Shown: positions 1-21,664, counted from the stretch's first letter. The stretch: DNA of 24,000 nucleotides from Peterkaempfera griseoplana (GCF_001418575.1 NZ_LIQR01000222.1:2554-26553), one strand, 5' to 3'. Translations and numbers: made by a program. The notes: generated by a model not told the origin, from the letters alone.

Positions 1-590
1 TGCTGCTGTTCGGTTGCCTGCTGCTGATCGGCGGGGTGGTCGGGCTGGTGCACGCGGTGCAGTCGCGCAAGGACAACTTCTTCTGGCTGGGTGCCGCGGT
101 CGCCGCGGTCAATCTGGCGGCAGGCCTGGTGATGGTGCTCCATCCGAGGGTGGCCGCGGTGGCGCTGACGCTGTTCGCGGCGCTGCTCTTCCTCACGGCG
201 GGTGTCTTCCGGGTGGTCGGCGGGCTGGCCGTACGGGGGCCCCAGCTGGGGTGGACGATCTTCCTCGGAGTGCTCGACCTGCTGCTGGGCGCGCTGGTGC
301 TGGCCGCATGGCCGACCAGTTCCCTCTACACCCTGGGCCTGTTCTTCTCGCTGGCCCTGCTGTTCGACGGCCTCGGGCTGCTCAGTACCGGTCTGAGCGG
401 CCGGCGGGTGCTCGCCCAGGTGGACGAGGAACGGCGGCGGGACGAGGTCGACTCGTACCTCGCGGGCCGCGAGGACGCCAGGAAGGCCGGGATCCGGGAG
501 CGGGAGTCGCACGGCGGCGGGGCCGGGACGACGCGCCCCGGCCAGTCCGGGCCGTCCGACCATCCGCCGACCCCGCCGATGGGGATCTGA
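1..590 (+). CDS. HdeD/DUF308-type small integral membrane protein, 5' end truncated by the window edge (reading frame starts at nt 3)
   Basis: The frame stays open from the window start (LLFGCLLLIGGVVGLVH...) to the stop at 588-590. It has repeated hydrophobic helices with GxxxG-rich spacing typical of HdeD-like proteins, then a charged Arg/Glu/Pro tail. The track ORF 36..590 is the same frame. Confidence 0.6.
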   Translation, partial: LLFGCLLLIGGVVGLVHAVQSRKDNFFWLGAAVAAVNLAAGLVMVLHPRVAAVALTLFAALLFLTAGVFRVVGGLAVRGPQLGWTIFLGVLDLLLGALVLAAWPTSSLYTLGLFFSLALLFDGLGLLSTGLSGRRVLAQVDEERRRDEVDSYLAGREDARKAGIRERESHGGGAGTTRPGQSGPSDHPPTPPMGI

Positions 591-740: not shown

Positions 741-1358
741 GTGTCCGAGGTGTGTGAAGGGCGGCTTGATGTGATGCAGATCAGCGGGGGCGCGCCGAGC
801 GCCCCCGGCGGCACCGGGCCCGGCCCGGTGGAGGGGGTCTGGCGGTTCGCCGCCCCCTCCCAGGAGTCCTCGGTCCCGCAGGCGCGGCATGCGGTCCGCG
901 ATCTGCTCACCGCCCAGGGCCTGGCCGGGCGGCCGCTCTACGAGGACCTGCTCCAGGGGCTGCTGCTGATCGTCTCGGAACTGGTCACCAACGCCGTGAA
1001 GCACGCGGCCGTGCTCTCCCCGCAGATAGTGGTGGAGGTGGTGATCGGCGGCGGCTGGGTGCGGGTCTCGGTGGAGGACAGCCACCCGTACCGCCCCAAG
1101 GCGCTCCACAACGACCACGGCCGCACCGGCGGGCGGGGGCTGCTGCTGGTCAAGGCGATCGCCCAGGAGGCGGGCGGGGCCTGCGACGTGGACCGCACCG
1201 TCAACGGCGGCAAGGTGGTGTGGGCCTCGCTGCCCATCCCCGTCGCCCGTATGGAACCGGCACTGCCCAGCCCGGCCTCCGCCTACCCGGTCCTCCCCGG
1301 CCCGGCAGGCGCGCCGGAGCGGCCCCTGCCGGGCCGTCCGGCGCCCTACGGCGGCTGA
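741..1358 (+). CDS. ATP-binding protein with an HATPase_c-type fold (RsbW/SpoIIAB-like anti-sigma factor / serine kinase family)
   Basis: It carries an N-box-like motif, LLIVSELVTNAVKHA, and a G-box-like motif, GRGLLLVKAIAQEAGG. It ends in a Pro-rich tail. The start is GTG 741, or possibly ATG 774. Confidence 0.7.
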   Translation: MSEVCEGRLDVMQISGGAPSAPGGTGPGPVEGVWRFAAPSQESSVPQARHAVRDLLTAQGLAGRPLYEDLLQGLLLIVSELVTNAVKHAAVLSPQIVVEVVIGGGWVRVSVEDSHPYRPKALHNDHGRTGGRGLLLVKAIAQEAGGACDVDRTVNGGKVVWASLPIPVARMEPALPSPASAYPVLPGPAGAPERPLPGRPAPYGG

Positions 1359-1393: not shown

Positions 1394-1993
1394 CCAGTCC
1401 ACGCCGGTGATCTCCCGGATCGTCGGCAGCGCCCCCTGGAGGACGGTCTCGAACCAGACCGAGAACGGCCGCTCGGCGCGCAGCGCCGCCAGCTCCCCGG
1501 GCGTGACGAAGGCGGTGTCCTCCACCTCCGCCGGATCGGGCCGCAGGGGAGCGGTGGCCAGCCCCACGAAGAGGTGGTTCCACTCCCGCTCGATCAGCCC
1601 GGAGGCGGCGTCGGGCAGGTCGTAGCGGACCGTCCCGGCCTCCCGCAGCAGCGCCGGGGCGACCCCCAGCTCCTCGGCGGTACGGCGGGCGGCGGCCACG
1701 AACGGCTGCTCGCCCGGGTAGGGGTGGCCGCAGCAGGTGTTGGACCAGACACCGGGGGAGTGGTACTTGCCGAGCGCACGGCGCTGCAGCAGCAGCCGCC
1801 CCTCGGCGTCGAAGAGGAAGACCGAGAAGGCCCGGTGCAGACGGCCGGGCTCCTGGTGGGCGGAGAGCTTCTCCGCGGTGCCGATGGTGCGGCCCTGGTC
1901 GTCCACGAGCTCAAGCAGGATCTCCGGCGCGGCAAGGGCGTCGCCCGGTGCACCGTCGACGGTGGCTGGGCTCGTGGTTCCGCTGGTCGGCAT
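1391..1993 (-). CDS. idi: Isopentenyl-diphosphate delta-isomerase, type I (Nudix family)
   Basis: The 200-aa product starts MPTSGTT (ATG complement at 1991-1993). It contains HRAFSVFLFD, WSNTCCGHP (catalytic Cys) and EREWNHLFVG motifs typical of type I IDI. The upstream 275 codons of the track ORF 1391..2818 are rejected (see the rejected list). Confidence 0.9.
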   Translation of the reverse strand: MPTSGTTSPATVDGAPGDALAAPEILLELVDDQGRTIGTAEKLSAHQEPGRLHRAFSVFLFDAEGRLLLQRRALGKYHSPGVWSNTCCGHPYPGEQPFVAAARRTAEELGVAPALLREAGTVRYDLPDAASGLIEREWNHLFVGLATAPLRPDPAEVEDTAFVTPGELAALRAERPFSVWFETVLQGALPTIREITGVDW

Positions 1994-3057
1994 ATGGCCC
2001 CTTTCGGCGCGAGGACCGGTCGCCGCCCGCGCCGTGTGCGCGGACCCACCCGCCCGGTCCGGCGGTTCGGCTGGGCGCCCCACCTGCTGCCACCGGGGCA
2101 TACGGGTGTGGCGCCGATGCCCCAGTCTGCCGTACGGGGCAGCCGTGGTTCGCCCGACGCACGCATCGGGACCGGCGCACCGAAGCCCTCGTGGCGGGCG
2201 GTGGGGCGGATGCCACCGGGTGCGCGGGCGGTGCGGGGTGCCGGGTCCCGGGGGGACGGTGCTGGGCCCTGCGTTGACGGGTGCCTGCGGGGAGCCTGCG
2301 GAGGGCGTCTGTCCGGCCGTTCGGCGGCGGTGCCACGGGGGCGGGCCGTCGTCCACAGGCGCTCGTCGTGCGGCCCGCGCACTCCCGGAAGGGCCCGGTT
2401 CCGCCTTGTCCCGGGCCGCCCGGCGGACCGGCCCCGCCCATGGGGGACCCGGCGACCCGGGCCGACGGCCCCGTGCCGCCCACAGGCCTGCGAGCGCCGC
2501 CGTGACCCACTGCCTCTCCCCCGGGCGGGAGCCACCGGCCCCGCCGCCGCGCCCCGACCGGCGCCTGCGGCCCCGCCCTGTCCGGCGTCCGGCGGCTGCC
2601 ACCGCGGCGCCCGGAGGGAAAGCCGCTGTTCGGGCAGCGCGCGGAGAGCCGTCGAGAGGGCCCGTGCGATGGCTTGTCCGGGGCCCCCGGAGTCGGCAAA
2701 GATGATCGACACGGGTGTTTCGGCACCGCTCGGACCCGGAGGGCTCCCCCTCTGTTTCCCCGGACTTCATCCGATAGCCTCTGCCGACGCACCACCACCG
2801 GGCCGTGCAGCGGCCCACGGCCTGCCTGCGATCGTCCGGGCGGGCGGCTGCCCCGCACCTCCAGGGAGTGAGTTCCGCTGTCCACCGCCATCCTGACCGG
2901 CCCCGACCCGGGCGGCATCGCAGAGCCGGACGGTGGTGCGCGGCAGGCGCTCCCCGCAGACCTCGCCGCGCTCGGCTACCGCCATGTCCTGGACGCCGCC
3001 GGCCCCGCCGAGCTGGCCCGGCTGCTGGCCGAGGCCCCGGCGGGCGAGCGGGTCGCC

Positions 3058-4896
3058 GTGGTGGACCGGCGCTTCGTCGGCCACCGGCACGCGCTGCGGC
3101 TCGGTCTGACCGACCCCCGCTTCCCCGCAGCCGCGGTGCCCGGCGCGCTCACCGCCGACGGGCCCGAGGCCCGCGCCGCGCTCGCCGGCGCCGCCCAGCG
3201 GCTGGCCGCGAGCACCTCCGCCGCGGGAGGCGGCGCCACCCTGGTGCTGCCGTCCCCCTCGGAGCAGGGGACGGACCCGGGCGCCGCGACGGTGATGCTC
3301 GACACCTCCGCGGCCGACGAGGGCCGCACCGTGATGGTGGACAGCGCGGCGGCCGACCGGGTCGCCGTGGCCGTCCTGCCCGACACCCTGGCGGCGGCCC
3401 TTGAGGCGGCCGGGACCGAGGTGTACCGCCCGGAGCTGGGCGAGCTGGTCGCCGCGGTCCCCGCCGACGACGCCGACCGCGGCCACGCGGCGCGGCGCAC
3501 CGCCGCCGTCGACGAGGAGGCGGTGCGGCTGAGGCGCGCGGTGAAGTCCCGGGACGGCTTCTTCACCACCTTCTGCATCAGCCCCTACTCCCGCTACCTG
3601 GCCCGCTGGTGTGCCCGCCGCGGCCTGACGCCCAATCAGGTCACCACCGGCTCGCTGCTGGTGGCGCTGCTCGCCGCCGCCAGTGCGGCCACCGGCACCA
3701 GGCCCGGGTTCGTGGCCGCCGGTGTGCTGCTGATCGCCTCGTTCGTGCTGGACTGCACCGACGGCCAGCTGGCCCGCTACTCGCTGCAGTACTCCACTCT
3801 CGGCGCCTGGCTGGACGCCACCTTCGACCGGATCAAGGAGTACGCGTACTACGCCGGCCTGGCCGTGGGCGCCTCCGTCGGCGGCGACGACGTCTGGACG
3901 CTGGCGCTGGGCGCGATGGTCCTGCAGAGCTGCCGCCATGTCGTGGACTTCGCCTTCATGGAGGCCAACCACGACGCGGCGGGCAACTCCAGCCCCACCG
4001 CGCAGCTCTCCAACCGGCTGGACCGGGTGGGCTGGACGGTGTGGGCACGCCGCATCGTGGTGCTGCCGATCGGTGAGCGCTGGGCCCTGATCGCGGTCCT
4101 CACCGCGCTCACCACCCCGCGGACCACCCTGGTGGTGCTGCTGATCGGCTGCGCCTTCGCCGCCTGCTACACCACCGCGGGCCGGGTGCTGCGCTCGGTC
4201 ACCCGGCTGCGGGCCCGTACCGACCGTGCCGCCGACGCCCTCGCCGAGCTCGCCGACTCGGGCCCGCTCGCGGAGCTCGGCGCACGCCTGCTGCGTCCGC
4301 TCGCGCGCCGGCTGCCCGCGTACGCGACCCCTGCCATCGCCGTCGCCGGTGCGGCGCTGCTGCTGGCCGGTGTGCTGCTGGGCGGCGCCGGCACCTGGTG
4401 GGCGGTGGCCGCGGCCGTCGGCTACCTGGTCACCTCCTCGCTGGCGGTCGCCCGCTCGCTGCGCGGCCCCCTGGACTGGCTGGTGCCGCCGGTGTTCCGC
4501 GCCGCCGAGTACCTCACCGTGCTGGGCCTGGCCGCCCAGCTGTCCGGTCCGGCCGTGCCCGCCGCCTTCGGGCTGGTCGCGGCCGTCGCCTACCATCACT
4601 ACGACACGGTCTACCGCATCCGCGGTGGCACCGGGGCGCCGCCGCGGTGGCTGGTGCGCGCAGCAGGCGGCCACGAGGGCCGGGTACTGCTACTCACCGT
4701 CGCCGCCGCACTCGCATACGGCGGCAGCCCGCACGGACCGGCCGGCGCCCGGCTCCCCGGAGCCCACGCGCTGCAGGTCACCCTGGCGGCCATGGCCGCC
4801 GTCCTGGCGCTGGTTGTCCTGGCCGAGAGCATCCGCTTCTGGGTCTTCGGCGGCGAAGCGCCGGCAGTCCACGACGAAACAGGAGACACCGCATGA
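3058..4896 (+). CDS. Multi-domain CDP-alcohol phosphatidyltransferase-family membrane protein. It has a soluble N-terminal domain, a CDP-alcohol transferase core and a long extra polytopic C-terminal domain. The true start is probably upstream, near 2878 (see findings).
   Basis: A complete D(x2)DG(x2)AR(x8)G(x3)D(x3)D motif, LDCTDGQLARYSLQYSTLGAWLDATFD, lies at nt 3751-3828. Multiple hydrophobic helices follow. The stop overlaps the next start (ATGA at 4893-4896). Confidence 0.85.
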   Translation: MVDRRFVGHRHALRLGLTDPRFPAAAVPGALTADGPEARAALAGAAQRLAASTSAAGGGATLVLPSPSEQGTDPGAATVMLDTSAADEGRTVMVDSAAADRVAVAVLPDTLAAALEAAGTEVYRPELGELVAAVPADDADRGHAARRTAAVDEEAVRLRRAVKSRDGFFTTFCISPYSRYLARWCARRGLTPNQVTTGSLLVALLAAASAATGTRPGFVAAGVLLIASFVLDCTDGQLARYSLQYSTLGAWLDATFDRIKEYAYYAGLAVGASVGGDDVWTLALGAMVLQSCRHVVDFAFMEANHDAAGNSSPTAQLSNRLDRVGWTVWARRIVVLPIGERWALIAVLTALTTPRTTLVVLLIGCAFAACYTTAGRVLRSVTRLRARTDRAADALAELADSGPLAELGARLLRPLARRLPAYATPAIAVAGAALLLAGVLLGGAGTWWAVAAAVGYLVTSSLAVARSLRGPLDWLVPPVFRAAEYLTVLGLAAQLSGPAVPAAFGLVAAVAYHHYDTVYRIRGGTGAPPRWLVRAAGGHEGRVLLLTVAAALAYGGSPHGPAGARLPGAHALQVTLAAMAAVLALVVLAESIRFWVFGGEAPAVHDETGDTA

Positions 4897-5648
4897 TCGG
4901 CCTCGTTCTGGCCGCCGGCGCCGGCCGCCGCCTGCGCCCGTACACCGACACCCTGCCCAAGGCCCTGGTGCCGGTGGACGGCGAGACGACCGTCCTCGAC
5001 CTCACCCTCGGCAACTTCGCCGAGGTCGGTCTGCGGGACGTCGCCGTCGTCGTCGGCTACCGCAAGGAGGCCGTGTACGACCGCAAGGCCGCCCTGGAGA
5101 AGAAGTACGGCGTCACCCTCACCCTGGTCGACAACGACAAGGCCGAGGAGTGGAACAACGCCTACTCCCTGTGGTGCGCCCGCGACCTCTTCAGCGAGGG
5201 CCTGGTGCTCGCCAACGGTGACACCGTCCACCCGGTCTCGGTGGAGCAGACCATGCTGGAGGCCAACGAGCGGCTGACCGCCGCCGGTGCGCAGCCCGGC
5301 ATCCTGCTGGCCCTGGACACCGTCAAGCACCTCGCCGACGAGGAGATGAAGGTCATCGTGGACGCCGAGAAGGGCGTCCAGCGGATCACCAAGCTGATGG
5401 ACCCGGCCACCGCCACCGGCGAGTACATCGGCGTCACCCTGATCAACCCCTCGGCCGCCGCCGACCTCGCCTCCGCCCTGCAGGCCACCTTCGAGCGCGA
5501 CCCGCAGCTCTACTACGAGGACGGCTACCAGGAGATGGTCGACCGCGGTCAGCGGATCGACGTCCAGCCGATCGGCGAGGTCTCCTGGGTCGAGATCGAC
5601 AACCACGACGACCTGGCCAAGGCCCGGGAGATCGCGTGCCGGTACTGA
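4893..5648 (+). CDS. Nucleotidyltransferase (sugar/alcohol-phosphate cytidylyltransferase-like, LicC/IPCT-type NTP_transferase)
   Basis: The N-terminus is MIGLVLAAGAGRRLRPYTDTLPKALVPV (GxGxRL plus a conserved Lys), with a NNAYSLW motif. AGGAG lies at 4881-4885 upstream of ATG 4893, and the start is coupled to the upstream stop by ATGA. Confidence 0.85.
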   Translation: MIGLVLAAGAGRRLRPYTDTLPKALVPVDGETTVLDLTLGNFAEVGLRDVAVVVGYRKEAVYDRKAALEKKYGVTLTLVDNDKAEEWNNAYSLWCARDLFSEGLVLANGDTVHPVSVEQTMLEANERLTAAGAQPGILLALDTVKHLADEEMKVIVDAEKGVQRITKLMDPATATGEYIGVTLINPSAAADLASALQATFERDPQLYYEDGYQEMVDRGQRIDVQPIGEVSWVEIDNHDDLAKAREIACRY

Positions 5649-6697
5649 CCCGCCTGATCCCGTCGCCGGTCGTCGTCGACATCCGTGCCGGAGCACTGGA
5701 CGACCTCGCCACGGTCCTCGCCGACCAGCGACTGTCCACCTCCGGCCGGATAGCCGTGGCGGTCAGCGGCGGGTCCGGCGCCGCCCTCCGGGGGCGGCTG
5801 GAGCCGCAGCTGCCGGGCGCGGACTGGTACTCGGTCGCCGACGGCACCCTGGACTCCGCGGTGCTGCTCGCCGACGCCGTTCGGGCCGGCCACTACGACG
5901 CCATGGTCGGCCTCGGCGGCGGCAAGGTCATCGACGCGGCCAAGTACGCCGCGGCGCGGGTCGGCCTGCCCATGGTGGCGGTGGCGACCAACCTGGCCCA
6001 CGACGGCATCTGCTCGCCGGTGTCCACGCTGGACAACGACGCAGGCCGCGGCTCCTACGGGGTGCCCAACCCGATCGGCATCATCGTCGACCTGGACGTC
6101 ATCCGCAGCGCCCCCAAGCGCTTCGTGGCGGCCGGGATCGGGGACGCGATCTCCAACATCTCCGCCTGCGCCGACTGGGAGCTCTCCCAGCGGGTCACCA
6201 GGGAGCCGGTGGACGGCCTGGCCATCGCCATGGCCCGGTCGGCGGGCGAGGTGCTGCTGCGCCACCCCGGCACCCTGGAGGACACCGAGCTGCTCACCGC
6301 GCTGGCCGAGTCCCTGGTGCTCTCGGGCATCTCCATGAACATCGCCGGCTCCACCCGGCCGTCCTCGGGGGCCTGCCACGAGATCTCGCACGCGCTGGAC
6401 ATCCTGTACCCCAAGCGGTCGGCCCAGCACGGCGAGCAGGTGGGCATCGGCGCGGCCTTCGCGACCTTCCTGCGGGGCGACCGGGAGGGCTCCGGCCTGA
6501 TCGTCCAGACCCTGGCGCGCCACGGACTGCCCGTGACCGCCGAGGAGATCGGCTTCTCCGAGGAGGAGTTCACCGCGGCGGTCCACTACGCACCGCAGAC
6601 CCGCCCCGGCCGTTTCACCATCCTCGAGCACCTCGACCTCGACACTTCTGCCATCAGGGACGCGTACTCCGACTATGTCCATGCCGTCAACAGCTGA
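5636..6697 (+). CDS. Iron-containing alcohol dehydrogenase superfamily protein, sn-glycerol-1-phosphate dehydrogenase (EgsA/AraM)-like
   Basis: It has the GLGGGKVIDAAKY nucleotide-binding loop, TNLAHDGICSPVS (close to the G1PDH AHDGIASP signature), and candidate metal ligands in CHEISHALD and QHGEQVG. The GTG start overlaps the upstream gene by 13 nt. Confidence 0.8.
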   Translation: MPVLTRLIPSPVVVDIRAGALDDLATVLADQRLSTSGRIAVAVSGGSGAALRGRLEPQLPGADWYSVADGTLDSAVLLADAVRAGHYDAMVGLGGGKVIDAAKYAAARVGLPMVAVATNLAHDGICSPVSTLDNDAGRGSYGVPNPIGIIVDLDVIRSAPKRFVAAGIGDAISNISACADWELSQRVTREPVDGLAIAMARSAGEVLLRHPGTLEDTELLTALAESLVLSGISMNIAGSTRPSSGACHEISHALDILYPKRSAQHGEQVGIGAAFATFLRGDREGSGLIVQTLARHGLPVTAEEIGFSEEEFTAAVHYAPQTRPGRFTILEHLDLDTSAIRDAYSDYVHAVNS

Positions 6698-7493
6698 GCC
6701 GACCCGCACGCACCGCCCCTCCGTCGAGGAGCTGCGCGCCGCCGTCCACCCCGAGGGGCTGCTCGACCGCCGCAGCGGCGAGCACTGGGCGGGCCGCATC
6801 TACATGCGGCGGATCTCCCTGCGGTTCACCCGCCTGCTGGTGAACACCCGGGTCACGCCCAACAGCCTCACCTATCTGATGATGCTCACCGGCATCGTCG
6901 CGGGTGCCGCGCTGCTCGTCCCCGGGATCGCCGGCGCCGTCCTGGGTGCCGTCCTCATCCAGGTCTACCTGCTGCTGGACTGCATCGACGGCGAGGTGGC
7001 CCGCTGGCGGCGGCAGACCTCGGTCACCGGTGTCTACCTGGACCGGGTCGGCCACTACCTCGCCGAGGCGGCGCTGCTCACCGGCGCCGGACTGCGGGCC
7101 GCCGACCTGTTCCACCGCGACGGCGGAGCCTCGCACTGGGAGTGGGCCTTCCTGGGCACGGTGGCCGCGCTGGGCGCGATCCTGATCAAGGCCGAGACCG
7201 ACCTGGTGGACGTCGCCCGGATCCGCAGCGGCCTCTTGGCCGTGCAGGACGCCGCCTCGGTGCCGCGCTCCTCGGGTGTCGCCAAGGCCCGCAAGGCGGC
7301 GGCCGCGCTGAAGTTCCACCGGCTGGTGGGCGGTGTGGAGGCCTCGCTGGTGCTGCTGGCGGTGGGCATCGCCGACGCGGTCCACGGCGATCTGCTCTTC
7401 ACCAGGATCGCGGTCGCGGTGCTCGCCGCCATCGCCCTGGTGCAGACCCTGCTCCACCTGGCCAGCATCGTCCTCTCCAGCAGGCTGCGATGA
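6675..7493 (+). CDS. CDP-alcohol phosphatidyltransferase family membrane protein (short form) with a variant catalytic motif
   Basis: The motif LDCIDGEVARWRRQTSVTGVYLDRVGH lies at nt 6978-7055, with the last conserved Asp replaced by His. The protein has about 6 hydrophobic helices. The start overlaps the upstream gene by 23 nt, and the stop overlaps the next start (ATGA). Confidence 0.85.
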   Translation: MSMPSTAEPTRTHRPSVEELRAAVHPEGLLDRRSGEHWAGRIYMRRISLRFTRLLVNTRVTPNSLTYLMMLTGIVAGAALLVPGIAGAVLGAVLIQVYLLLDCIDGEVARWRRQTSVTGVYLDRVGHYLAEAALLTGAGLRAADLFHRDGGASHWEWAFLGTVAALGAILIKAETDLVDVARIRSGLLAVQDAASVPRSSGVAKARKAAAALKFHRLVGGVEASLVLLAVGIADAVHGDLLFTRIAVAVLAAIALVQTLLHLASIVLSSRLR

Positions 7494-8413
7494 GCGCGGC
7501 CCTGCCGGCGGCGGGCGGCGGCCGGACGGAGCGCGACGGCTTCCGGCTGGGCGCGGTCGTGCTCACCATGGGCAACCGGCCGGTCGAGCTGAACGCCCTG
7601 CTGGAGTCGGTCGCCAAGCAGCGCGGGCCCGCGGTCGAGGTGGTGGTGGTCGGCAACGGCGCCCCGCTGCCGGCGCTGCCCGAGGGCGTCCGCACGGTCG
7701 AGCTGGAGGAGAACCTCGGCATCCCGGCCGGTCGCAACGTCGGCATCGAGGCGTTCGGCAAGGACGGCTGCGAGGTCGACGCGGTGCTCTTCCTGGACGA
7801 CGACGGGCTGCTGCCCGGCGACGACACCGCCGAGAAGCTGCGGGCGGCCTTCACCGCCGACCCCGGGCTCGGCATCGTCTCCTTCCGGATCGCCGATCCG
7901 GAGACCGGCACCACCCAGCGCCGCCACGTCCCGCGGCTGCGCGCCTCCGACCCGCTGCGCTCCTCGGTGGTCACCACCTTCCTCGGTGGCGCCTCGGCGG
8001 TGCGCAGCAGCGTCTTCGCGCAGGCCGGCCAGCTCCCGGGCGAGTTCTTCTACGCCCATGAGGAGACCGACCTGGCCTGGCGCGCCCTGGACGCCGGCTG
8101 GTCCATCGAGTACCGCGCGGACATCGTCCTGTACCACCCGGCGACCCTGCCCAGCCGGCATGCGGTGTACCACCGGATGGTGGCCCGCAACCGGGTCTGG
8201 CTCGCCCGCCGCAACCTTCCCGCCCTGCTGGTCCCGGCCTATCTGGGCACCTGGATCCTGCTCACTCTGGTTCGCCGACCCTCCCGTGCCGCGCTGAAGG
8301 CGTGGATGGGAGGATTCCGTGAGGGCTGGCGGACGCCCTGCGGGCTGCGCCGGCCCATGCGGTGGCGTACTGTGTGGCGGCTGACCCGGCTCGGTCGTCC
8401 CCCGGTCATCTGA
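7490..8413 (+). CDS. Family 2 glycosyltransferase (GT-A fold)
   Basis: It shows AVVLTMGNRP, NLGIPAGRNVG and FLDDDG (DxD) motifs. A C-terminal hydrophobic/amphipathic segment is present. ATG 7490 overlaps the upstream TGA. Confidence 0.85.
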   Translation: MSAALPAAGGGRTERDGFRLGAVVLTMGNRPVELNALLESVAKQRGPAVEVVVVGNGAPLPALPEGVRTVELEENLGIPAGRNVGIEAFGKDGCEVDAVLFLDDDGLLPGDDTAEKLRAAFTADPGLGIVSFRIADPETGTTQRRHVPRLRASDPLRSSVVTTFLGGASAVRSSVFAQAGQLPGEFFYAHEETDLAWRALDAGWSIEYRADIVLYHPATLPSRHAVYHRMVARNRVWLARRNLPALLVPAYLGTWILLTLVRRPSRAALKAWMGGFREGWRTPCGLRRPMRWRTVWRLTRLGRPPVI

Positions 8414-8428
8414 TCACGAGATCCTCAT

Positions 8429-8457
8429 TTGACCTGCGGACCCAGGCCCGCGAAGAT
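8429..8457 (+). promoter_or_regulatory. Candidate internal sigma-70 (HrdB-like) promoter for the exporter genes
   Basis: TTGACC (8429-8434), a 17-nt spacer, then GAAGAT (8452-8457). It sits in the only lower-GC gap inside the operon (8414-8540). This is a sequence resemblance only. Confidence 0.25.
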
Positions 8458-8459
8458 CC

Positions 8460-8477
8460 CCGTTGCAGCAGCAACGG
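8460..8477 (+). promoter_or_regulatory. Perfect small stem-loop in the GT2/permease gap (5'-UTR stabiliser, processing site or weak attenuator)
   Basis: ccgttgc-agca-gcaacgg forms a 7-bp perfect stem with a 4-nt loop. The ccgttg core recurs about 40 nt downstream (cccgttgaacgg). Confidence 0.3.
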
Positions 8478-8540
8478 CACGATTGCAGGAGAGCGCCCGT
8501 TGAACGGAAGCCGGACCTGCCGATCTCGCATAGGACGAAA

Positions 8541-9452
8541 GTGTCAACAGTGAGTGAGCACATCCGCCCCGTAGCGGTGGCGGGAGGCCCTGACCAGGGC
8601 CTGAGCCCGGCGCAGCTCGCCGCCAAGTACGGCCTGTCGGTGAGCGGCGCGCGCCCGAGCCTTCCGGCGTACATCCGGCAGCTCTGGTCGAGACGGCACT
8701 TCATCGTGGCGTACTCCACGGCGCGGCTGACGGCCATGTACACCAAGGCCAAACTCGGTCAGCTGTGGCAGGTGATGACCCCGCTGCTGAACTGCGCGGT
8801 CTACTTCCTGATCTTCGGGCTGCTGCTGAAGACCGGGCGGGGTACCCCGCACTTCATCCAGTTCCTCTGCATCGGCGTCTTCATCTTCACCTTCACCCAG
8901 AACGCGGTGATGGCCGGCACCCGGTCCATCGCCGACAACCTGGGGCTGGTGCGGGCGCTGCACTTCCCGCGCGCCTGCCTGCCGATCTCCTTCACCATCA
9001 TCCAGCTGCAGCAGCTGCTGTTCTCGATGATCGTGCTGCTGGGCATCGTGCTCTTCGCCAACCCGCCGCTGATGGCCTGGGTGCTGGTACTGCCCGCGCT
9101 GGGGCTGCAGTTCGTCTTCAACACCGGACTGGCGATGATCCTGGCCAGGGTGGGTGCCAAGGTCACGGACACCGCGCAGCTGATGCCCTTCATCCTGCGC
9201 ACCTGGATGTACGCCTCCGGCGTGATGTTCAACATCCAGAACATCGACGTCCCCTCCTGGGCCCGGACCCTGCTGGACGTCAACCCCATCGCGGTCTACA
9301 TCGACCTGATGCGCTACTCCCTGCTGCGGTCGGTGCACAGCGACATCCTGCCCGCGCACGTCTGGGGCTGGGCGATCGGCTGGGCGGTCGTCGTGGGCCT
9401 CGGTGGGTTCGTGTACTTCTGGAAGGCTGAGGAGGAGTACGGCCGTGGCTGA
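8541..9452 (+). CDS. ABC-2 type transporter permease (Wzm/TagG-like polysaccharide/teichoic-acid exporter family)
   Basis: It has six hydrophobic helices and the typical N-terminal LWSRRHFIVAYSTARL...YTKAKLGQLWQVMTPLL segment of ABC-2 exporters. AGGA at 8532-8535 precedes GTG 8541 (GTG 8550 is an alternative). The earlier part of the track ORF from 8463 looks non-coding. Confidence 0.85.
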   Translation: MSTVSEHIRPVAVAGGPDQGLSPAQLAAKYGLSVSGARPSLPAYIRQLWSRRHFIVAYSTARLTAMYTKAKLGQLWQVMTPLLNCAVYFLIFGLLLKTGRGTPHFIQFLCIGVFIFTFTQNAVMAGTRSIADNLGLVRALHFPRACLPISFTIIQLQQLLFSMIVLLGIVLFANPPLMAWVLVLPALGLQFVFNTGLAMILARVGAKVTDTAQLMPFILRTWMYASGVMFNIQNIDVPSWARTLLDVNPIAVYIDLMRYSLLRSVHSDILPAHVWGWAIGWAVVVGLGGFVYFWKAEEEYGRG

Positions 9453-10251
9453 GGCACCGACCATGACCGAGGACGCCGGCACCATCACCCGGGAGCGCAT
9501 CCCGACCGTGATCGTCGACGGCCTGCACATCGTCTACCGCGTGCACGGCGCGGGCAGCGGCAAGGGCAGCGCCACCTCGGCGCTGAGCCGCATCGTCTCC
9601 AAGCGGCGCTCCCCCTCGGTGCGCGAGGTGCACGCCGTGCGCGGGGTGACCTTCACCGCCTACAAGGGCGAGGCCATCGGCCTGATCGGCTCCAACGGCT
9701 CGGGCAAGTCGACCCTGCTGCGGGCCATCGCGGGCCTGCTGCCGGCCGAGCGCGGCGCCGTCTACACCGACGGGCAGCCGTCGCTGCTGGGCGTCAACGC
9801 GGCGCTGATGAACGACCTCACGGGTGAGCGCAACGTCATCCTCGGCGGCCTGGCCATGGGCATGAGCCAGGACGAGATCAAGTCCCGCTACGAGGAGATC
9901 GTGGACTTCTCGGGGATCAACGAGAAGGGCGACTTCATCTCGTTGCCGATGCGCACCTACTCCTCCGGTATGGCGGCCCGGCTGCGGTTCTCCATCGCCG
10001 CGGCCAAGAGCCATGACGTCCTCATGATCGACGAGGCGCTGGCCACCGGTGACGCCAAGTTCCAGCGCCGCAGCGAGGAGCGCATCCGCGAGCTGCGCAA
10101 GGAGGCCGGCACCGTCTTCCTGGTGAGCCACAACAACAAGTCGATCCGCGACACCTGCGACCGCGTGATCTGGCTGGAGAAGGGCGAACTGCTGATGGAC
10201 GGGCCCACCGACGAGGTGATCAAGGCCTACGAGAAGGAGAACAAGCGCTGA
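9445..10251 (+). CDS. ABC transporter ATP-binding protein (Wzt/TagH/KpsT-like, with no C-terminal carbohydrate-binding extension)
   Basis: Walker A is GSNGSGKST, the signature is YSSGMAARL and Walker B is VLMIDEAL. GGAGGAG at 9431-9437 precedes GTG 9445, which overlaps the permease stop (GTGGCTGA). ATG 9463 is an alternative start. Confidence 0.9.
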   Translation: MAEAPTMTEDAGTITRERIPTVIVDGLHIVYRVHGAGSGKGSATSALSRIVSKRRSPSVREVHAVRGVTFTAYKGEAIGLIGSNGSGKSTLLRAIAGLLPAERGAVYTDGQPSLLGVNAALMNDLTGERNVILGGLAMGMSQDEIKSRYEEIVDFSGINEKGDFISLPMRTYSSGMAARLRFSIAAAKSHDVLMIDEALATGDAKFQRRSEERIRELRKEAGTVFLVSHNNKSIRDTCDRVIWLEKGELLMDGPTDEVIKAYEKENKR

Positions 10252-10276
10252 CGCGCGGCTCCTCTCCCACCGCCGC

Positions 10277-10326
10277 GGCCGAGGGCCGGGGACGGGGTGC
10301 ACACCCCGCCTCCCCGGCCCTCGGCC
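10277..10326 (+). terminator. Strong GC hairpin closing the seven-gene operon
   Basis: ggccgagggccgggga (10277-10292) pairs perfectly with tccccggccctcggcc (10311-10326). The stem extends imperfectly through an inner gggg/cccc helix. It lies 26 nt after the ATPase stop. Confidence 0.6.
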
Positions 10327-10571
10327 GTCGGTGATTCCGGCCGGGGATCACCCCGTGGCAGCCGCTGTCGTCACCCCGGCCTAGAGTGAGTGCACACCCC
10401 GGCGAGCCGGCGCAGGTTGTGCTCTCGCGGGGGTGAGGGCGTGTCCGCTGTGTGCACGCCGTCAAGATCGGTGTAGAACGGGGGAGTGACGCCAGTGGTG
10501 GCTTCGGCCCATTCCGAGGGGGCGCGCGGCCCGGCGCCGCGACCTGCCGGCAGCCAGGCGGGCGGTCGCCG

Positions 10572-11552
10572 GTGACCGCGGACGGACGTACGGCCAGTCC
10601 CGGCGCGCCCGTGGAGGGCGCGGTACTGGGCAAGGCGGCGAGGGAGAACTTCCCCGTCGCCCCCTTCTTCCTGCCCGCAGCCTGGCGGGACGACCTGATG
10701 GCGGTCTACGGGTTCGCCCGGCTGGTCGACGACGCGGGCGACGGCGACCTGGACGACCCGCAGCGGACCGCCGACCTGCTCGGCGTCGACACGCCCGTCC
10801 CGCAGACCCGCACCCGGCCCGGCACCGCGCTGCCCTCCGAGGAGGAGACCGAGTTCCGGCTGGCCCTGCTGGACGGCCTGGAGCGCGACCTGGACCGGGT
10901 CTTCGCCATCGTGCTGGGCACCGGCGGCCTGGAGCAGGCCCGCCACCCCCTGATGCGCGCGCTGGTACCACTGGTGGAAAATCGCGGGCTCAGCGCCGAA
11001 CCCTTCCGTAACCTGATCCAGGCGAACCGGGTGGACCAGCAGACCGTCCGGTACGCCCGCTACGAGGACCTGCTGGGCTACTGCGAGCTGTCCGCCAATC
11101 CGGTCGGTCGGCTGGTGCTGTCCATCGCGGGCGTCTCCACACCCGAACGGGTGGAGCGCTCGGATGCGATCTGCAGCGCACTGCAGGTGATCGAGCATCT
11201 GCAGGACGTTGCGGAGGACCGTGCGAGGGGGAGGATCTATCTGCCCGCGGAGGACCTGGACCGATTCGGCGTGACCGAGACGGACCTCGCCGCCCCCACC
11301 GCGAGCGAGCGGGTGCGTGACCTGGTCGCCTTCCAGGCACGTCGAGCAGGGACCCTGCTCGATCATGGCGCACCACTGGTAGGTAGCGTGCGGGGGAGGC
11401 TCAGGCTGCTGCTCGCCGGTTTCACCGCCGGAGGGCGCGCCGCCCTGGGGGCGATCCACGCCGCCGGGTACGACGTACTGCCGGGGCCGCCCAAGCCCGC
11501 CAAGAGCCGTCTCCTGCGGGAGGCTGCGGCCACATTTGTGAAGGGAAGGTGA
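10572..11552 (+). CDS. hpnC: Squalene synthase HpnC (hydroxysqualene synthase, trans-isoprenyl diphosphate synthase head-to-head family)
   Basis: It contains KAARENFPVAPFFLP, FARLVDDAGDG and LQDVAEDRARGRIYLP, the Asp-rich motifs of the squalene/phytoene synthase fold. The start is uncertain: GTG 10572 is preferred, GTG 10611 is possible, and the track start 10452 lies in a low-GC3 leader. Confidence 0.85.
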   Translation: MTADGRTASPGAPVEGAVLGKAARENFPVAPFFLPAAWRDDLMAVYGFARLVDDAGDGDLDDPQRTADLLGVDTPVPQTRTRPGTALPSEEETEFRLALLDGLERDLDRVFAIVLGTGGLEQARHPLMRALVPLVENRGLSAEPFRNLIQANRVDQQTVRYARYEDLLGYCELSANPVGRLVLSIAGVSTPERVERSDAICSALQVIEHLQDVAEDRARGRIYLPAEDLDRFGVTETDLAAPTASERVRDLVAFQARRAGTLLDHGAPLVGSVRGRLRLLLAGFTAGGRAALGAIHAAGYDVLPGPPKPAKSRLLREAAATFVKGR

Positions 11553-12451
11553 GCCCCGGGGTGGCGGCATCACCACTGGCGTCCGCGCAGGTCATGGCGG
11601 CATACCGGTACTGCGAGGCAGTCACCGGTATGCAGGCGCGCAACTTCAGCTACGGGATCAGGCTGCTGCCGGAGCCCAAGCGGCTGGCCATGTCCGCGCT
11701 CTACGCCCTCGCCCGCCGGGTCGACGACATCGGCGACGGGGACCTCGCGCCCGAGCGCAAGGCCGAGCTGCTCGGCCGCACCCGCGCCCTGCTCGACGAG
11801 GTCCGCGCCGGTGAGGTGCAGGAGGACGACACCGACCCGATCAAGGTCGCCCTGGCGGACGCCGCCGAGCGCTTCCCCGTCCCGGTGGACGCCTTCGACG
11901 AGCTGATCGACGGCGTGGAGATGGACCTGCGCGGCGCCGAGTACGCGACCTTCGAGGACCTGCGCACCTACTGCCGCTGTGTGGCGGGCTCCATCGGGCG
12001 GCTCTCGCTGGGCGTCTTCGGCTGCACCGACCCCAAGCTCGGCGCCGAGTACGCCGACACCCTGGGCCTGGCCCTGCAGCTCACCAACATCCTGCGCGAC
12101 CTGCGTGAGGACGCCGCCAACGGCCGCACCTACCTGCCGGCCGAGGATCTGGCCAGGTTCGGCTGCGAGTCCGGCTTCGACACCGCCCGCCCCCCGGCGG
12201 GCGCCGACTTCACCGGGCTGGTCGCCTTCCAGGCCGCACGGGCGCAGCGGTACTTCGAGGAGGGCCTGCTGCTGCTCCCGATGCTCGACCGCCGCAGCCG
12301 GGCCTGCACCGCGGCCATGGCGGGCATCTACCACCGGCTGCTGCAGCGGATCGCGGCGGAGCCGGAGTCGGTGCTGCGCGGCCGGGTGTCGCTGCCCGGA
12401 TGGGAGAAGGCCTATGTGGCGCTCTCCGGCCTGGCCGGAGGGCGCTCTTGA
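11549..12451 (+). CDS. hpnD: Presqualene diphosphate synthase HpnD
   Basis: It contains YRYCEAVTGMQARNFSYGIRLLP, ARRVDDIGDG and LRDLREDAANGRTYLP. GTG 11549 overlaps the hpnC stop (GTGA). ATG 11594 is an alternative start. Confidence 0.85.
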   Translation: MSPGVAASPLASAQVMAAYRYCEAVTGMQARNFSYGIRLLPEPKRLAMSALYALARRVDDIGDGDLAPERKAELLGRTRALLDEVRAGEVQEDDTDPIKVALADAAERFPVPVDAFDELIDGVEMDLRGAEYATFEDLRTYCRCVAGSIGRLSLGVFGCTDPKLGAEYADTLGLALQLTNILRDLREDAANGRTYLPAEDLARFGCESGFDTARPPAGADFTGLVAFQAARAQRYFEEGLLLLPMLDRRSRACTAAMAGIYHRLLQRIAAEPESVLRGRVSLPGWEKAYVALSGLAGGRS

Positions 12452-15341: not shown

Positions 15342-17483
15342 GTGACAACAACCGCGGACGGCCGGCTCGACCCCGAGTACGATCCCGAGCCGGTCGCGGT
15401 GAAGAGTCCCCCGCAGGAAGCGGGGGCATCCGCTGGCGACCCGGCCGCCGCCGAGGGGGCCGCGGCGGCCCCCGCAGGCGCCCCGGCGCCGACCCCGCGG
15501 GCGGTGGCCGCGGCGGCGCTGGAGCGCGCCACCGCCCATCTGCTGTCGCTGCAGAACGAGCAGGGCTGGTGGAAGGGCAACCTCGAGACCAATGTGACCA
15601 TGGACGCCGAGGATCTGCTGCTGCGGCAGTTCCTGGGCATCCGCACCGATGAGCAGACCCGCGCCACCGCCCAGTGGATCCGCTCCCAGCAGCGCGAGGA
15701 CGGCACCTGGGCCACCTTCCACGGCGGCCCGTCCGAGCTCTCCACCACGGTGGAGGCCTATGTCGCCCTCAAGCTCGCCGGTGACGACCCGCAGGCACCG
15801 CACATGGCCTCCGCCGCGGCCTGGATCCGGGAGCACGGCGGGATCGCCGCCAGCAGGGTCTTCACCCGGATCTGGCTGGCGCTCTTCGGCTGGTGGCCCT
15901 GGAGCCGGCTGCCGGAGCTGCCCCCCGAGGTCATGTTCCTGCCCAAGTGGGCCCCGCTCAACATCTACTCCTTCGGCTGCTGGGCCCGGCAGACCATCGT
16001 GCCGCTGACCGTGGTCTCCGCGCACCGCCCCGTCCGTCCGGCCCCCTTCGCCCTGGACGAGCTGCACAGCGACCCGGCCGACCCCTTCCGCACCCCGCCG
16101 ATGGCCTCGCCCACCAGCTGGGACGGCCTCTTCCAGCGGCTGGACCGGGTGCTGCACGCCTACCACCGGCACGCGGTGGGCCCCCTGCGCCGGCTCGCCC
16201 TGGGCCAGGCGACCCGCTGGATCGTGGAGCGCCAGGAGGCGGACGGCTGCTGGGGCGGGATCCAGCCCCCCGCGGTCTACTCGCTGATCGCCCTCCACCT
16301 GGAGGGTTACGACCTGGCGCACCCGGTGATGAAGGCCGGACTCGCCGCCTTCGACCGCTTCACCGTGCACACCGAGGACGGCGGCCGCTGGCTGGAGGCC
16401 TGTCAGTCCCCGGTGTGGGACACCTGCCTGGCCACCATCGCGCTGGTGGACGCCGGGCTGCCCGCCGACCACCCCGCTCTGATCTCCGCGGCGGAGTGGA
16501 TGCTCGGCGAGGAGGTGCGACGGCGCGGCGACTGGGCCGTCCAGCGGCCCGGGCTGCCCGCCGGCGGATGGGCGTTCGAGTTCGACAACGACACCTATCC
16601 CGACATCGACGACACCGCCGAGGTGGTCCTGGCACTGCGCCGGGTGGCCCACCCGGACCAGGAGCGGCTGCGGGCCGCGGTGGAGCGCGGAGTCGCCTGG
16701 AACCTGGGCATGCAGTCCAAGAACGGCGCCTGGGGCGCCTTCGACGTGGACAACACCAGCACACTGCCCAACAAGCTGCCGTTCTGCGACTTCGGCGAGG
16801 TGGTGGACCCGCCGTCCGCCGACGTCACCGCCCATGTGGTGGAGATGCTCGCCGACGTCGGCAAGGCCCGCGACCCCCGCACCCGCCGGGGCGTGGAGTG
16901 GCTGCTTCGCGAGCAGGAGACCGACGGCTCCTGGTTCGGCCGCTGGGGCACCAACTACATCTACGGGACGGGCTCGGTGGTCCCGGCGCTGGTCGCCGCG
17001 GGCATCCCCACCGCCCACCCCGCCGTCCGCCGCGCCGTGCGGTGGCTGGAGGAGCACCAGAACGCCGACGGCGGCTGGGGCGAGGACATGCGCTCCTACG
17101 AGGACCAGGAGAAGTGGTCCGGACGCGGGGAGTCCACCGCCTCGCAGACCGCCTGGGCGCTGATGGCCCTGCTGTCGGCGGGGGAGAGCGGGGAGGCGGT
17201 GGACCGCGGCGTCGCCTGGCTGGCCGCCACCCAGCTGCCGGAGGGCACCTGGGACGAGCCGCACTTCACCGGCACCGGCTTCCCCTGGGACTTCTCCATC
17301 AACTACAACCTCTACCGCCTGGTCTTCCCGGTGACCGCACTCGGCCGCTACCTCCACGGCGTCCCCCGGCCGGAGGCCGGCGGCCACCCGGTGCGCTCCC
17401 TGACCGCCCCCCTCGCCGCGGCCTCCGGGACCCGGGGCGACGGGTCCGGCGGCGAGGGCAGCGGGGCGAGGGGCGACCGATGA
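15342..17483 (+). CDS. shc: Squalene-hopene cyclase
   Basis: The catalytic DxDDTA motif is present (YPDIDDTAEVV). There are multiple QW repeats (QNEQGWW, QQREDGTW, RQEADGCW, EQETDGSWFGRWG, HQNADGGWGE, TQLPEGTWDE). The start is GTG 15342, 7 nt after the upstream stop. Confidence 0.95.
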   Translation: MTTTADGRLDPEYDPEPVAVKSPPQEAGASAGDPAAAEGAAAAPAGAPAPTPRAVAAAALERATAHLLSLQNEQGWWKGNLETNVTMDAEDLLLRQFLGIRTDEQTRATAQWIRSQQREDGTWATFHGGPSELSTTVEAYVALKLAGDDPQAPHMASAAAWIREHGGIAASRVFTRIWLALFGWWPWSRLPELPPEVMFLPKWAPLNIYSFGCWARQTIVPLTVVSAHRPVRPAPFALDELHSDPADPFRTPPMASPTSWDGLFQRLDRVLHAYHRHAVGPLRRLALGQATRWIVERQEADGCWGGIQPPAVYSLIALHLEGYDLAHPVMKAGLAAFDRFTVHTEDGGRWLEACQSPVWDTCLATIALVDAGLPADHPALISAAEWMLGEEVRRRGDWAVQRPGLPAGGWAFEFDNDTYPDIDDTAEVVLALRRVAHPDQERLRAAVERGVAWNLGMQSKNGAWGAFDVDNTSTLPNKLPFCDFGEVVDPPSADVTAHVVEMLADVGKARDPRTRRGVEWLLREQETDGSWFGRWGTNYIYGTGSVVPALVAAGIPTAHPAVRRAVRWLEEHQNADGGWGEDMRSYEDQEKWSGRGESTASQTAWALMALLSAGESGEAVDRGVAWLAATQLPEGTWDEPHFTGTGFPWDFSINYNLYRLVFPVTALGRYLHGVPRPEAGGHPVRSLTAPLAAASGTRGDGSGGEGSGARGDR

Positions 17484-18235: not shown

Positions 18236-18237
18236 CC

Positions 18238-19266: not shown

Positions 19267-19285
19267 GGACCCGTCACCTCCACCA

Positions 19286-19319
19286 GTGCGGCGCGGGGCC
19301 GCCCCACCCCGCGCCGCAC
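19286..19319 (+). terminator. Perfect 13-bp GC hairpin directly after hpnH
   Basis: gtgcggcgcgggg (19286-19298), an 8-nt loop, then ccccgcgccgcac (19307-19319). It starts 20 nt after the hpnH stop. No U-tract is present. Confidence 0.5.
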
Positions 19320-19424
19320 GGCTCCTCCCCGTGCGGCTCCCGCCTGCCCGGGTTCTCCCTTCACCCCGTCCTCTCACACCGTTCCCCGAAGCACTGATCC
19401 GCCGTTCCACAGTGAGGGTGAAAC

Positions 19425-21642: not shown

Positions 21643-21664
21643 CGGCGCGGTAACGTCCCCCGCC

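Follow-up and report, generated by a model that had tools for sequence, protein, structure and literature searches.

The seven-gene operon and its products

The stretch of DNA described here, referred to as the window, comprises 24,000 nucleotides of Peterkaempfera griseoplana (GCF_001418575.1 NZ_LIQR01000222.1:2554-26553). Between idi and a group of hopanoid genes it carries a block of seven genes, g1 to g7 (Table 1), whose products may together build and export a glycerophosphate-containing glycoconjugate of the cell envelope. According to G+C content at third codon positions (GC3), open-frame analysis and the translations, all seven are on the plus strand, span 2878-10251 and belong to a near-continuous plus-strand gene run across the window, in DNA of 71-79% G+C with a strong third-position bias. 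Consecutive genes overlap by 4, 13, 23, 4 and 8 nt along the operon. The g1/g2 and g4/g5 junctions are ATGA stop/start sequences (4893-4896 and 7490-7493), the GTG start of g3 (5636) lies inside g2 and the ATG of g4 (6675) inside g3, and g6 and g7 are coupled by GTGGCTGA at 9445-9452. The sole intergenic gap, of 49 nt, separates g5 from g6 (8414-8462). A preliminary description of the window had treated these genes as one operon-like unit, and all the junctions it quoted are present. Its motifs are likewise found in place in the translations, and its family assignments hold for the seven proteins (Pfam, NCBIfam), each of which passes a Pfam gathering score.

Table 1. Position and nature of the operon genes, associated sites and flanking genes in the window
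Feature	Position	Strand	Description
g1	2878-4896	+	672-aa membrane protein; CDP-alcohol phosphotransferase with DUF5941
g2	4893-5648	+	251-aa LicC/IPCT-type nucleotidyltransferase; PF00483, PF12804
g3	5636-6697	+	353-aa EgsA/AraM-family NAD(P)-dependent dehydrogenase; PF13685, 99 bits (cut-off 28)
g4	6675-7493	+	272-aa CDP-alcohol-phosphotransferase homologue without the fourth Asp
g5	7490-8413	+	307-aa family 2 glycosyltransferase (GT2), hydrophobic C-terminal segment; PF00535, 39.1 bits
g6	8463-9452	+	ATP-binding cassette (ABC) permease of ABC-2 type, TagG/Wzm-like; PF01061, 49.6 bits
g7	9445-10251	+	ABC ATPase, TagH/Wzt-like; PF00005, 68 bits
Conserved upstream element	2766-2790	+	CATCCGATAGCCTCTGCCGAC; candidate promoter -10 region or 5' leader of the operon
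Shine-Dalgarno sequence of g1	2864-2868	+	GGGAG; kept as GGAGTGA in Streptomyces orthologues; start codon 9 nt downstream
Closing hairpin	10276-10327	+	GC-rich; arms 10276-10297 and 10306-10327
DUF308 gene	36-590		Upstream; membrane protein
HATPase_c gene	741-1358		Upstream; anti-sigma-like protein
idi	1391-~1990	-	Upstream; NUDIX protein, divergent from the operon
hpnC	10452-11552		Downstream
hpnD, hpnE, polyprenyl synthase, hpnG, hpnH, ispG			Downstream of hpnC
shc	15342-17483		Downstream; squalene-hopene cyclase

The first product, g1, consists of a degenerate nucleotidyltransferase-like N-domain (about residues 1-215, with an N-terminus that reads STAILTGPDPGG), a CDP-alcohol phosphotransferase domain (PF01066, 36.8 bits against a cut-off of 22; motif at 292-317) and a C-terminal DUF5941 (about 449-672; PF19365, 279.5 bits). 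The transferase motif is complete, D292xxD295GxxAR...G309xxxD313xxxD317, and invariant in 15 diverse homologues that are 33-51% identical to the reference sequence of the alignment. Every catalytic residue is present, and g1 is the likely transferase. Its best NCBIfam match is archaetidylinositol-phosphate synthase, and the best sequence matches in the PDB are two Archaeoglobus fulgidus proteins, AF2299 (4o6m) and IPCT-DIPPS (4mnd), in which a nucleotidyltransferase-like cytoplasmic domain precedes a six-helix CDP-alcohol phosphotransferase that uses a soluble CDP-alcohol donor. The same two structures are the top Foldseek matches of an AlphaFold (AF2) model of g1 (mean predicted local distance difference test score, pLDDT, 71; about 90 in the N-domain), over ~460-500 columns that extend across the alpha/beta cytoplasmic N-domain and the transmembrane domain. 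Thus, g1 shares their architecture, a nucleotidyltransferase-fold N-domain followed by a transmembrane transferase domain. By contrast with IPCT-DIPPS, the N-domain of g1 has lost the GxGxR loop of a competent nucleotidyltransferase (it is also absent from the aligned homologues), the active nucleotidyltransferase is encoded by a separate gene, and DUF5941 is additional. Residues 1-174 of g1 have no Pfam match, and some distant homologues show a weak or precomputed match to NTP_transf_3 (PF12804). The idea that DUF5941 is a degenerate second CDP-alcohol-transferase bundle was rejected, as the hhalign probability stayed under 1% whether it was compared with the g1 transferase domain or with g4. 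No relatives of DUF5941 were detected, and Foldseek against the PDB matched the N-domain and the transferase part of g1 only.

The second product, g2, carries a GAGRRL loop, and its best PDB match is LicC, the pneumococcal CTP:phosphocholine cytidylyltransferase (1jyk, E 1.8e-14), followed by 4jd0. The motifs GxGxRLRP and NDK..(W/Y)NN.YSL are common to g2 and LicC and near-invariant in 75 orthologues, and the LicC/IPCT-like assignment of the preliminary description is borne out by the LicC match. In a metagenomic actinobacterial contig (L081, 3960-7136), g1 and g2 are fused in one 1058-aa protein, CDP-OH_P_transf + DUF5941 + NTP_transferase, which mirrors the coupled cytidylyltransferase and transferase of IPCT-DIPPS; downstream of the fusion come g3, g4, g5 and an ABC-2 permease. 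The 13-nt overlap of g2 and g3 recurs in two distant loci from metagenome-assembled genomes (MAGs).

The dehydrogenase g3 groups with sn-glycerol-1-phosphate dehydrogenase (G1PDH), as had been suggested earlier, rather than with GldA or dehydroquinate synthase (DHQS). The NCBIfam model for G1PDH (NF002022) gives 238 bits over positions 11-342 of 350, compared with 92 for GldA and 26 for AroB. In the PDB, g3 matches 3ce9, a structural-genomics entry named glycerol dehydrogenase (1.6e-43), and the G1PDH chains 4rgq of M. jannaschii (7e-41), 5fb3 (6e-32) and 9h4x (3.8e-23), while GldA-named chains other than 3ce9 reach 6e-20 or weaker and DHQS 2.5e-4. Published trees assign sequences from Streptomyces and other Actinobacteria to the G1PDH family, where they share a deep bacterial clan with those of Firmicutes (PMC5059525, PMC6431249). 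The elements GGG..D..K, hDG..SP, G.GD, HEI.Ha.D and hge are conserved in 74 orthologues; among them, G.GD, HEI.H and HGE align to the M. jannaschii enzyme and are invariant or at least 90% conserved. The translation contains AHDGICSP, CHEISH and QHGEQVG, which had been assigned together to a G1PDH-like metal site. The two His motifs would hold metal positions, whereas AHDGICSP is the nucleotide/substrate loop. Judged from the alignment to M. jannaschii G1PDH and the ligand positions of this enzyme family, the metal ligands would be D170 (of GIGD), H248 and H265. Thus, g3 shares its fold family, metal and nucleotide loops and a full-length profile alignment with EgsA and with AraM of Bacillus subtilis. 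It differs from EgsA, which serves ether-lipid synthesis, and from AraM, which feeds PcrB, in being translationally coupled to genes for a cytidylyltransferase and CDP-alcohol transferases; its activity is predicted, and its score lies under the equivalog cut-off.

The preliminary description counted two CDP-alcohol phosphotransferases. The homology of g4 to this family stands (99.2% by hhalign against the CDP-OH domain of g1; AF2299 as best PDB match and IPCT/DIPPS as best NCBIfam match), but its motif, D102..D105G..AR..G119...D123...H127, lacks the fourth Asp (D4) that completes the motif of g1. Its match to PF01066 (37.3 bits, cut-off 22) covers profile positions 2-67 of 152 only. None of the 74 orthologues aligned over the motif has Asp at D4: the residue is His in Thermoleophilia, Streptosporangiales and some Streptomyces (His127 in the window, 7053-7055) and Ala in most Streptomyces. 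D4 coordinates metal and is the proposed catalytic base, and its mutation abolishes the activity of MtPis, the phosphatidylinositol-phosphate (PIP) synthase of M. tuberculosis (PMC9385802). As the substitution is kept across the whole g4 family, it suggests an altered mechanism or a pseudo-enzyme. Hence, g4 may be an atypical enzyme with His as the base, against which the Ala of most Streptomyces argues, or a non-catalytic partner of g1. The solved members of the CDP-alcohol phosphotransferase family are dimers.

The remaining genes encode a glycosyltransferase and an exporter. The GT2 g5 has an FLDDD motif, with DDD at residues 103-105. The permease g6, for which a TTG start at 8463 is plausible because some orthologues align from residues 2-4, has the galactan Wzm/RfbD permease as its nearest NCBIfam model, with a score far under the cut-off. 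In g7, Walker A (GSNGSGKS), signature (YSSGM) and Walker B (VLMIDE) motifs are present, and the NCBIfam scores for TagH (175 bits) and galactan Wzt (158 bits) lie below their cut-offs of 320 and 400. With a permease and an ATPase bearing these motifs, g6/g7 have the make-up of an ABC-2 exporter.

The architecture of g1 and the IPCT/DIPPS match of g4 would also suit the synthesis of a soluble phosphodiester solute of the di-myo-inositol-phosphate, diglycerol-phosphate or glycerophosphoinositol type, as made by IPCT-DIPPS-like enzymes of hyperthermophiles. A cytoplasmic product is nevertheless hard to reconcile with a conserved ABC-2 exporter and GT2, with the wall-polymer genes described below, with the extra multi-helix membrane domain DUF5941 and with an operon that has no phosphatase gene, and we regard this as the least probable of the alternatives considered.

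Conservation and genomic neighbourhoods

When genomes were scanned with a profile built from diverse g1 homologues, more than 558 loci were obtained, of which the best 80 were sampled. Gene order was read by tblastn with the proteins of the window, and neighbours were identified by clustering and Pfam scans. The full g1-g7 order was observed in about 60 Streptomyces species. The g1-g2-g3-g4 core, mostly accompanied by g5 and g6/g7, is present in MAGs of Solirubrobacteraceae, Thermoleophilaceae and Gaiellaceae (class Thermoleophilia), and the same core occurs in Actinoallomurus, Streptosporangiaceae, an 'Actinomycetales' MAG and a Frankiaceae MAG. The glycosyltransferase gene g5 is kept in most loci and missing in some (L002, L025, L048, L056 and L061). 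Recurrence of the same gene order in over 70 loci, spread across several orders and classes of Actinobacteria, shows that it is not due to chance: the operon is real and conserved.

The genes around the operon differ between lineages. Each of the Streptomyces loci has idi upstream of the operon on the opposite strand, and hpnC-hpnD-hpnE-polyprenyl synthase follows downstream wherever the fetched DNA extends that far. By contrast, none of the 18 operon-carrying loci from outside Streptomycetaceae has a hopanoid gene or idi next to the operon (within 10 kb), so that co-location with hpn/shc does not follow the operon wherever it occurs. The preliminary description took the position beside idi and the hopanoid genes as a clue to an isoprenoid carrier or hopanoid acceptor, an idea that this distribution does not support; we read the adjacency as a lineage-specific accident of genome order in Streptomycetaceae.

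In Streptosporangiales, the neighbours are a ligase of the LytR-CpsA-Psr (LCP) family (LytR_cpsA_psr + LytR_C) and a GT2, with an IspD/TarI-like cytidylyltransferase immediately upstream. In Thermoleophilia, a family 4 glycosyltransferase (GT4) is encoded directly upstream, and a Wzy_C (O-antigen-ligase family) protein downstream in three loci. Two long metagenomic contigs with precomputed Pfam annotation agree with this picture and add a TarS_linker GT2 and a second ABC-2 permease.

These observations bear on the possibility that sn-glycerol-1-phosphate (G1P) serves as backbone or head group of an archaeal-like ether lipid or of a hopanoid-polyol phospholipid. The proximity of idi, hpnCDE, the polyprenyl synthase gene and shc in about 60 Streptomyces species would fit such a product, as would the archaetidylinositol-phosphate synthase match of the g1 family. 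Additionally, 'lipid divide' phylogenomics recognised the deep bacterial G1PDH clan of Firmicutes and Actinobacteria, and Coleman 2019 reported orthologues of G1PDH, GGGPS and DGGGPS in Streptomyces and speculated on archaeal-like lipids (PMC6431249). However, no GGGPS, DGGGPS or CarS domain was found in the window or in the conserved neighbours, which led us to reject the ether-lipid version. In addition, the operon never adjoins hopanoid or idi genes in the 18 loci outside Streptomycetaceae, a strong hairpin separates g7 from hpnC, and g2 is a soluble LicC-type enzyme and not a CDP-archaeol synthase. The conserved context of the operon argues for a phosphodiester product of the cell envelope, and an archaeal-like or hopanoid-linked lipid appears very unlikely.

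Two further observations were made in the sampled loci. In Planotetraspora, Sphaerisporangium and Herbidospora (L013 at ~8000-12120, L065 and L069), a g1-like gene (CDP-OH transferase + DUF5941) occurs without g2-g4; in the three Streptosporangiaceae genomes with this partnerless paralogue, it adjoins the undecaprenyl-diphosphate synthase gene uppS and a gene that is recO-like by eye. In three Solirubrobacterales loci (L034 11512-12984, L006 15663-17435 and L030 17312-18868), a polytopic membrane protein of ~490-590 aa with no Pfam match is encoded on the opposite strand just downstream of the operon; this conserved protein could be a GT-C-like extracytoplasmic transferase.

A possible route to a glycerophosphate-containing envelope glycoconjugate

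Based on family membership and gene linkage, we propose that the block assembles, in an ABC-transporter-dependent manner, a lipid-linked envelope glycoconjugate that contains glycerophosphate and is teichoic-acid-like but made by non-canonical enzymes, and we give this reading a probability of roughly 0.55. In the proposed pathway, g3 would convert dihydroxyacetone phosphate (DHAP) to G1P, and g2, acting as a CTP:glycerol-1-phosphate cytidylyltransferase, would use G1P and CTP to make CDP-sn-1-glycerol, which is the simplest product because g2 pairs with an enzyme of the G1PDH family. CDP-sn-1-glycerol is the enantiomer of the TagD product, and a CDP-alcohol donor is what CDP-alcohol phosphotransferases require. 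As the putative main glycerophosphotransferase or polymerase, g1 would then move glycerophosphate from CDP-glycerol onto a hydroxyl group of a membrane-bound acceptor, possibly repeatedly, and its DUF5941 might be involved in acceptor handling. The role of g4 would be that of an atypical primer enzyme or of a non-catalytic partner of g1, g5 would add or supply a sugar, and g6/g7 would export the lipid-linked product. Once outside the cell, this product could be attached by an LCP ligase to peptidoglycan, or a Wzy_C/TacL-like ligase could join it to a glycolipid. The cytidylylation and transfer steps are tied together by the g1-g2 fusion and by the IPCT-DIPPS-like architecture of g1. A lipid-linked acceptor and an exported product are favoured by the wall-polymer neighbours, the GT2 and the conserved ABC-2 exporter. 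The core biochemistry that the preliminary description had envisaged (a CDP-polyol, transfer to a lipid acceptor and ABC export) is reasonable and strengthened by the comparative evidence, but its hopanoid link is not supported.

In its logic, the proposed pathway is like that of wall teichoic acid (WTA) in Firmicutes (TagD/TarIJ, TagB/TagF, TagGH and LCP), where a CDP-polyol is used on a lipid-linked acceptor, followed by glycosylation and TagG/TagH-type export. The g3/g2 pair resembles TarJ/TarI, a dehydrogenase and a cytidylyltransferase that make a CDP-polyol, and the LCP ligase genes that adjoin the operon in Streptosporangiales are a further likeness. By contrast, the block has neither a TagF/TagB (Glyphos_transf) domain nor a TagD-fold cytidylyltransferase, the predicted glycerophosphate is sn-1 instead of sn-3, the transferases are integral-membrane CDP-alcohol phosphotransferases, and g7 scores below the TagH cut-off. 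In agreement with the earlier opinion that the enzymology fits neither the TagF nor the LtaS route, the seven proteins of the block had no match to PF04464 (Glyphos_transf) or PF00884 (LtaS) at E <= 0.01.

Other systems share part of this logic. In the pneumococcal LicC/CDP-choline route and TacL, a LicC-type enzyme feeds a teichoic-acid component and lipoteichoic acid (LTA) is derived from a polyprenyl-linked precursor without LtaS; the Wzy_C-family gene near the operon in three Thermoleophilia loci is reminiscent of this. However, the pneumococcal transferases are of the LicD type, the flippase TacF takes the place of an ABC-2 exporter, and the alcohol is choline. In a wall-polysaccharide cluster of the actinobacterium Schaalia odontolytica XH001 (APY09_00530-00540), a cytidylyltransferase and a 'CDP-alcohol phosphatidyltransferase', likened to the block here by description only, have been read as equivalents of TagD and TagF (PMC11032452). 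That cluster differs in having a TagD-type glycerol-3-phosphate cytidylyltransferase and no G1PDH, and its assignment is annotation-based.

The intact motif of g1 would also fit a Kennedy-type route, where CDP-sn-1-glycerol is used in a single transfer to diacylglycerol or a glycolipid and the resulting phosphatidylglycerol (PG) or glycerophospho-glycolipid is moved by the ABC-2 transporter. Among characterised proteins, g1 and g4 come closest to head-group enzymes for lipids or solutes (AIPS, PIPS and DIPPS), the head group of PG has the sn-1 configuration, CDP-choline:diacylglycerol phosphotransferases offer a parallel, and LicC and a CDP-alcohol phosphotransferase make phosphatidylcholine in Treponema. 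However, TagH/Wzt-like ABC-2 exporters usually carry polyprenyl-linked polymers, the neighbouring genes are LCP, GT4, Wzy_C and TarS-like, PgsA already provides Actinobacteria with PG, and a GT2 and two transferase homologues exceed the needs of a head-group step. Consequently, we consider a Kennedy-type route improbable.

Several points weigh against an envelope glycoconjugate as the product. To our knowledge, no enzyme of the CDP-alcohol phosphotransferase family has been shown to build a teichoic acid, and we know of no enzyme activity, product or mutant phenotype for the block. The score of g3 lies under the equivalog cut-off of NF002022 (413 bits), g2 scores similarly in NCBIfam for sugar-1-phosphate nucleotidyltransferases and for IPCT, and in some loci g5 and g6/g7 are missing or lie elsewhere. 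Furthermore, g4 lacks the presumed catalytic-base residue (see PMC9385802 for its role). The wall polymers described for S. coelicolor and S. venezuelae are teichulosonic acid and poly(diglycosyl-1-phosphate), not poly(glycerophosphate) (PMC11481543), and the TagB/TagF orthologues of Streptomyces could explain its glycerophosphate polymers (PMC3196553).

The scores of g2 and g3 leave room for another substrate: g2 might activate inositol-1-phosphate, another polyol phosphate or a sugar-1-phosphate, and g3 might reduce a different keto-phosphate, so that the polymer or decoration would contain another polyol phosphate. Several polyols occur in the teichoic acids of actinomycetes, and a TarI/IspD-like gene adjoins the operon in Streptosporangiales. 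By contrast, g3 aligns in full length with the G1PDH profile and with solved G1PDHs and retains all the conserved loops, none of the conserved neighbourhoods contains an inositol-phosphate synthase or kinase, and the CDP-alcohol donor that is needed would most naturally come from the tightly coupled g2/g3 pair. Hence, we see only a modest chance that the substrate differs.

Because the wall polymers of the model streptomycetes are not poly(glycerophosphate), a polyglycerophosphate product of the proposed glycoconjugate pathway would more plausibly be LTA, a linkage unit or a decoration. It has been reported that Streptomyces, Thermobifida and Agromyces make polyglycerophosphate LTA and that Actinobacteria lack LtaS, and reuse of the TagB/TagF route has been the favoured explanation for the LTA of Streptomyces since 2009 (PMC3196553). 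LTA in actinomycetes without LtaS, which the preliminary description had mentioned, is thus documented for Streptomyces. The operon might be the missing LtaS-independent route to actinobacterial (lipo)teichoic acid, with CDP-sn-1-glycerol, supplied through a bacterial member of the archaeal-type G1PDH family, polymerised on a lipid acceptor by g1 (with help from g4) and the polymer exported in a TagGH-like manner, a more specific suggestion that we consider less likely than not. It would be a concrete alternative to TagF reuse, and the predicted sn-1 stereochemistry is that of LTA.

If these proposals were true, TagF and LtaS would be joined by a third class of glycerophosphate polymerase with a mechanism of its own, the maintenance of G1PDH in Actinobacteria would be explained, and the CDP-alcohol phosphotransferase family would gain polyol-phosphate transfer to glycoconjugates, possibly with polymerisation. 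DUF5941 and the conserved Asp-less paralogue would also acquire functions. Since the block is present in essentially all the sampled Streptomyces loci and in soil Thermoleophilia, abundant soil bacteria and antibiotic producers probably carry its product as a major part of their envelope.

Literature searches on DUF5941, SCO6752-6757, G1PDH with Streptomyces and CDP-alcohol with teichoic retrieved no functional study of the block, which in S. coelicolor we take to be SCO6752-6758. No paper was found that characterises the pathway, as the preliminary description had supposed: the enzyme families are known, but their combination, the DUF5941 fusion and the Asp-less paralogue are undescribed. These genes appear among the 'orphan' Streptomyces clusters of a 2026 pan-proteome synteny study, which names a CDP-alcohol phosphatidyltransferase, a GT2 and a sugar-phosphate nucleotidyltransferase next to crtB, tagG, tagH and araM and links them loosely to teichoic acid and secondary metabolism (PMC13118837). 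A preprint (bioRxiv 10.1101/2022.11.11.516236) equates ramAB with sco6757-58, which clashes with our assumption that these are the ABC-2 pair of the block. One of the two must be a numbering error, and the ramAB mention looks like a numbering slip.

Start, control regions and flanking genes

Although the open reading frame (ORF) tool places the start of g1 at GTG 3058, the start at 2878 given in the preliminary description is right, if non-canonical (a rare CTG), because 54 orthologues align from its residue 1 and Streptomyces orthologues have TTG at the exact position of this CTG, behind the conserved GGGAG. A database protein 100% identical to g1 (a DUF5941 protein of Streptacidiphilus griseoplanus) has 659 aa, 13 residues fewer than translation from 2878 gives, and its annotated start is consequently probably too far downstream.

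The ~880-bp gap between idi and g1 (1990-2877) has 78-80% G+C and no codon-position signal. Long ORFs on both of its strands look spurious, and a gene in the gap was rejected, as the GC3 signal is missing and the tblastx matches are low-complexity noise. Among Streptomyces loci, conserved DNA in the gap is limited to a short stretch at ~2766-2822. It includes the conserved element of Table 1, also written ATCCGATAGCCTC(TGCCGAC) for window positions 2766-2790. Of 64 regions preceding g1, 52 contain its core, ATCCG[A/C]TA[A/G]CCTC, at a distance of 50-99 nt (mostly 74-84) ahead of the Shine-Dalgarno sequence. In 48 Streptomyces loci (e.g., L011 9428-9627), GTGAAC or ATGAAC lies at a fixed 13-14 nt upstream of the element. 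This GAAC-N16-CCGATA arrangement looks like a candidate promoter of the extracytoplasmic function (ECF) sigma type, although the window itself has not kept the -35-like GAAC.

The GC hairpin that was said to close the unit is also real. Its 22-nt arms are 91% complementary in an inverted-repeat search, with the outer 17 bp perfect by eye, and the minimum free energy of 10270-10335 is -63.9 kcal/mol. It has no T tract and is likely to be a factor-independent terminator of the actinomycete type without a U tract. Scans of 1900-10600 for sigma-70 promoters and T-tract terminators called nothing, the closing hairpin included. This is expected at 75% GC, and the consensus terminator scan passes over the hairpin because it has no T run. 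No RNA family was found in the whole window in an Rfam scan at gathering thresholds.

With respect to the flanks, the operon is indeed bordered by idi and the hopanoid genes, as first described, but idi is on the minus strand and divergent. The hopanoid cluster of S. coelicolor includes dxs and aminotransferase genes, neither of which was seen within this window. After ispG come two GNAT acetyltransferase genes, the first with DUF4081, and a gene for an APH(6)/hydroxyurea-type phosphotransferase on the minus strand (20788-22210 and 22227-23174). Finally, g6/g7 (8001-10000) and hpnH/ispG (18001-20000) have ~68% G+C, compared with 71-78% in their neighbours, a difference that could reflect membrane-protein composition or a separate origin.

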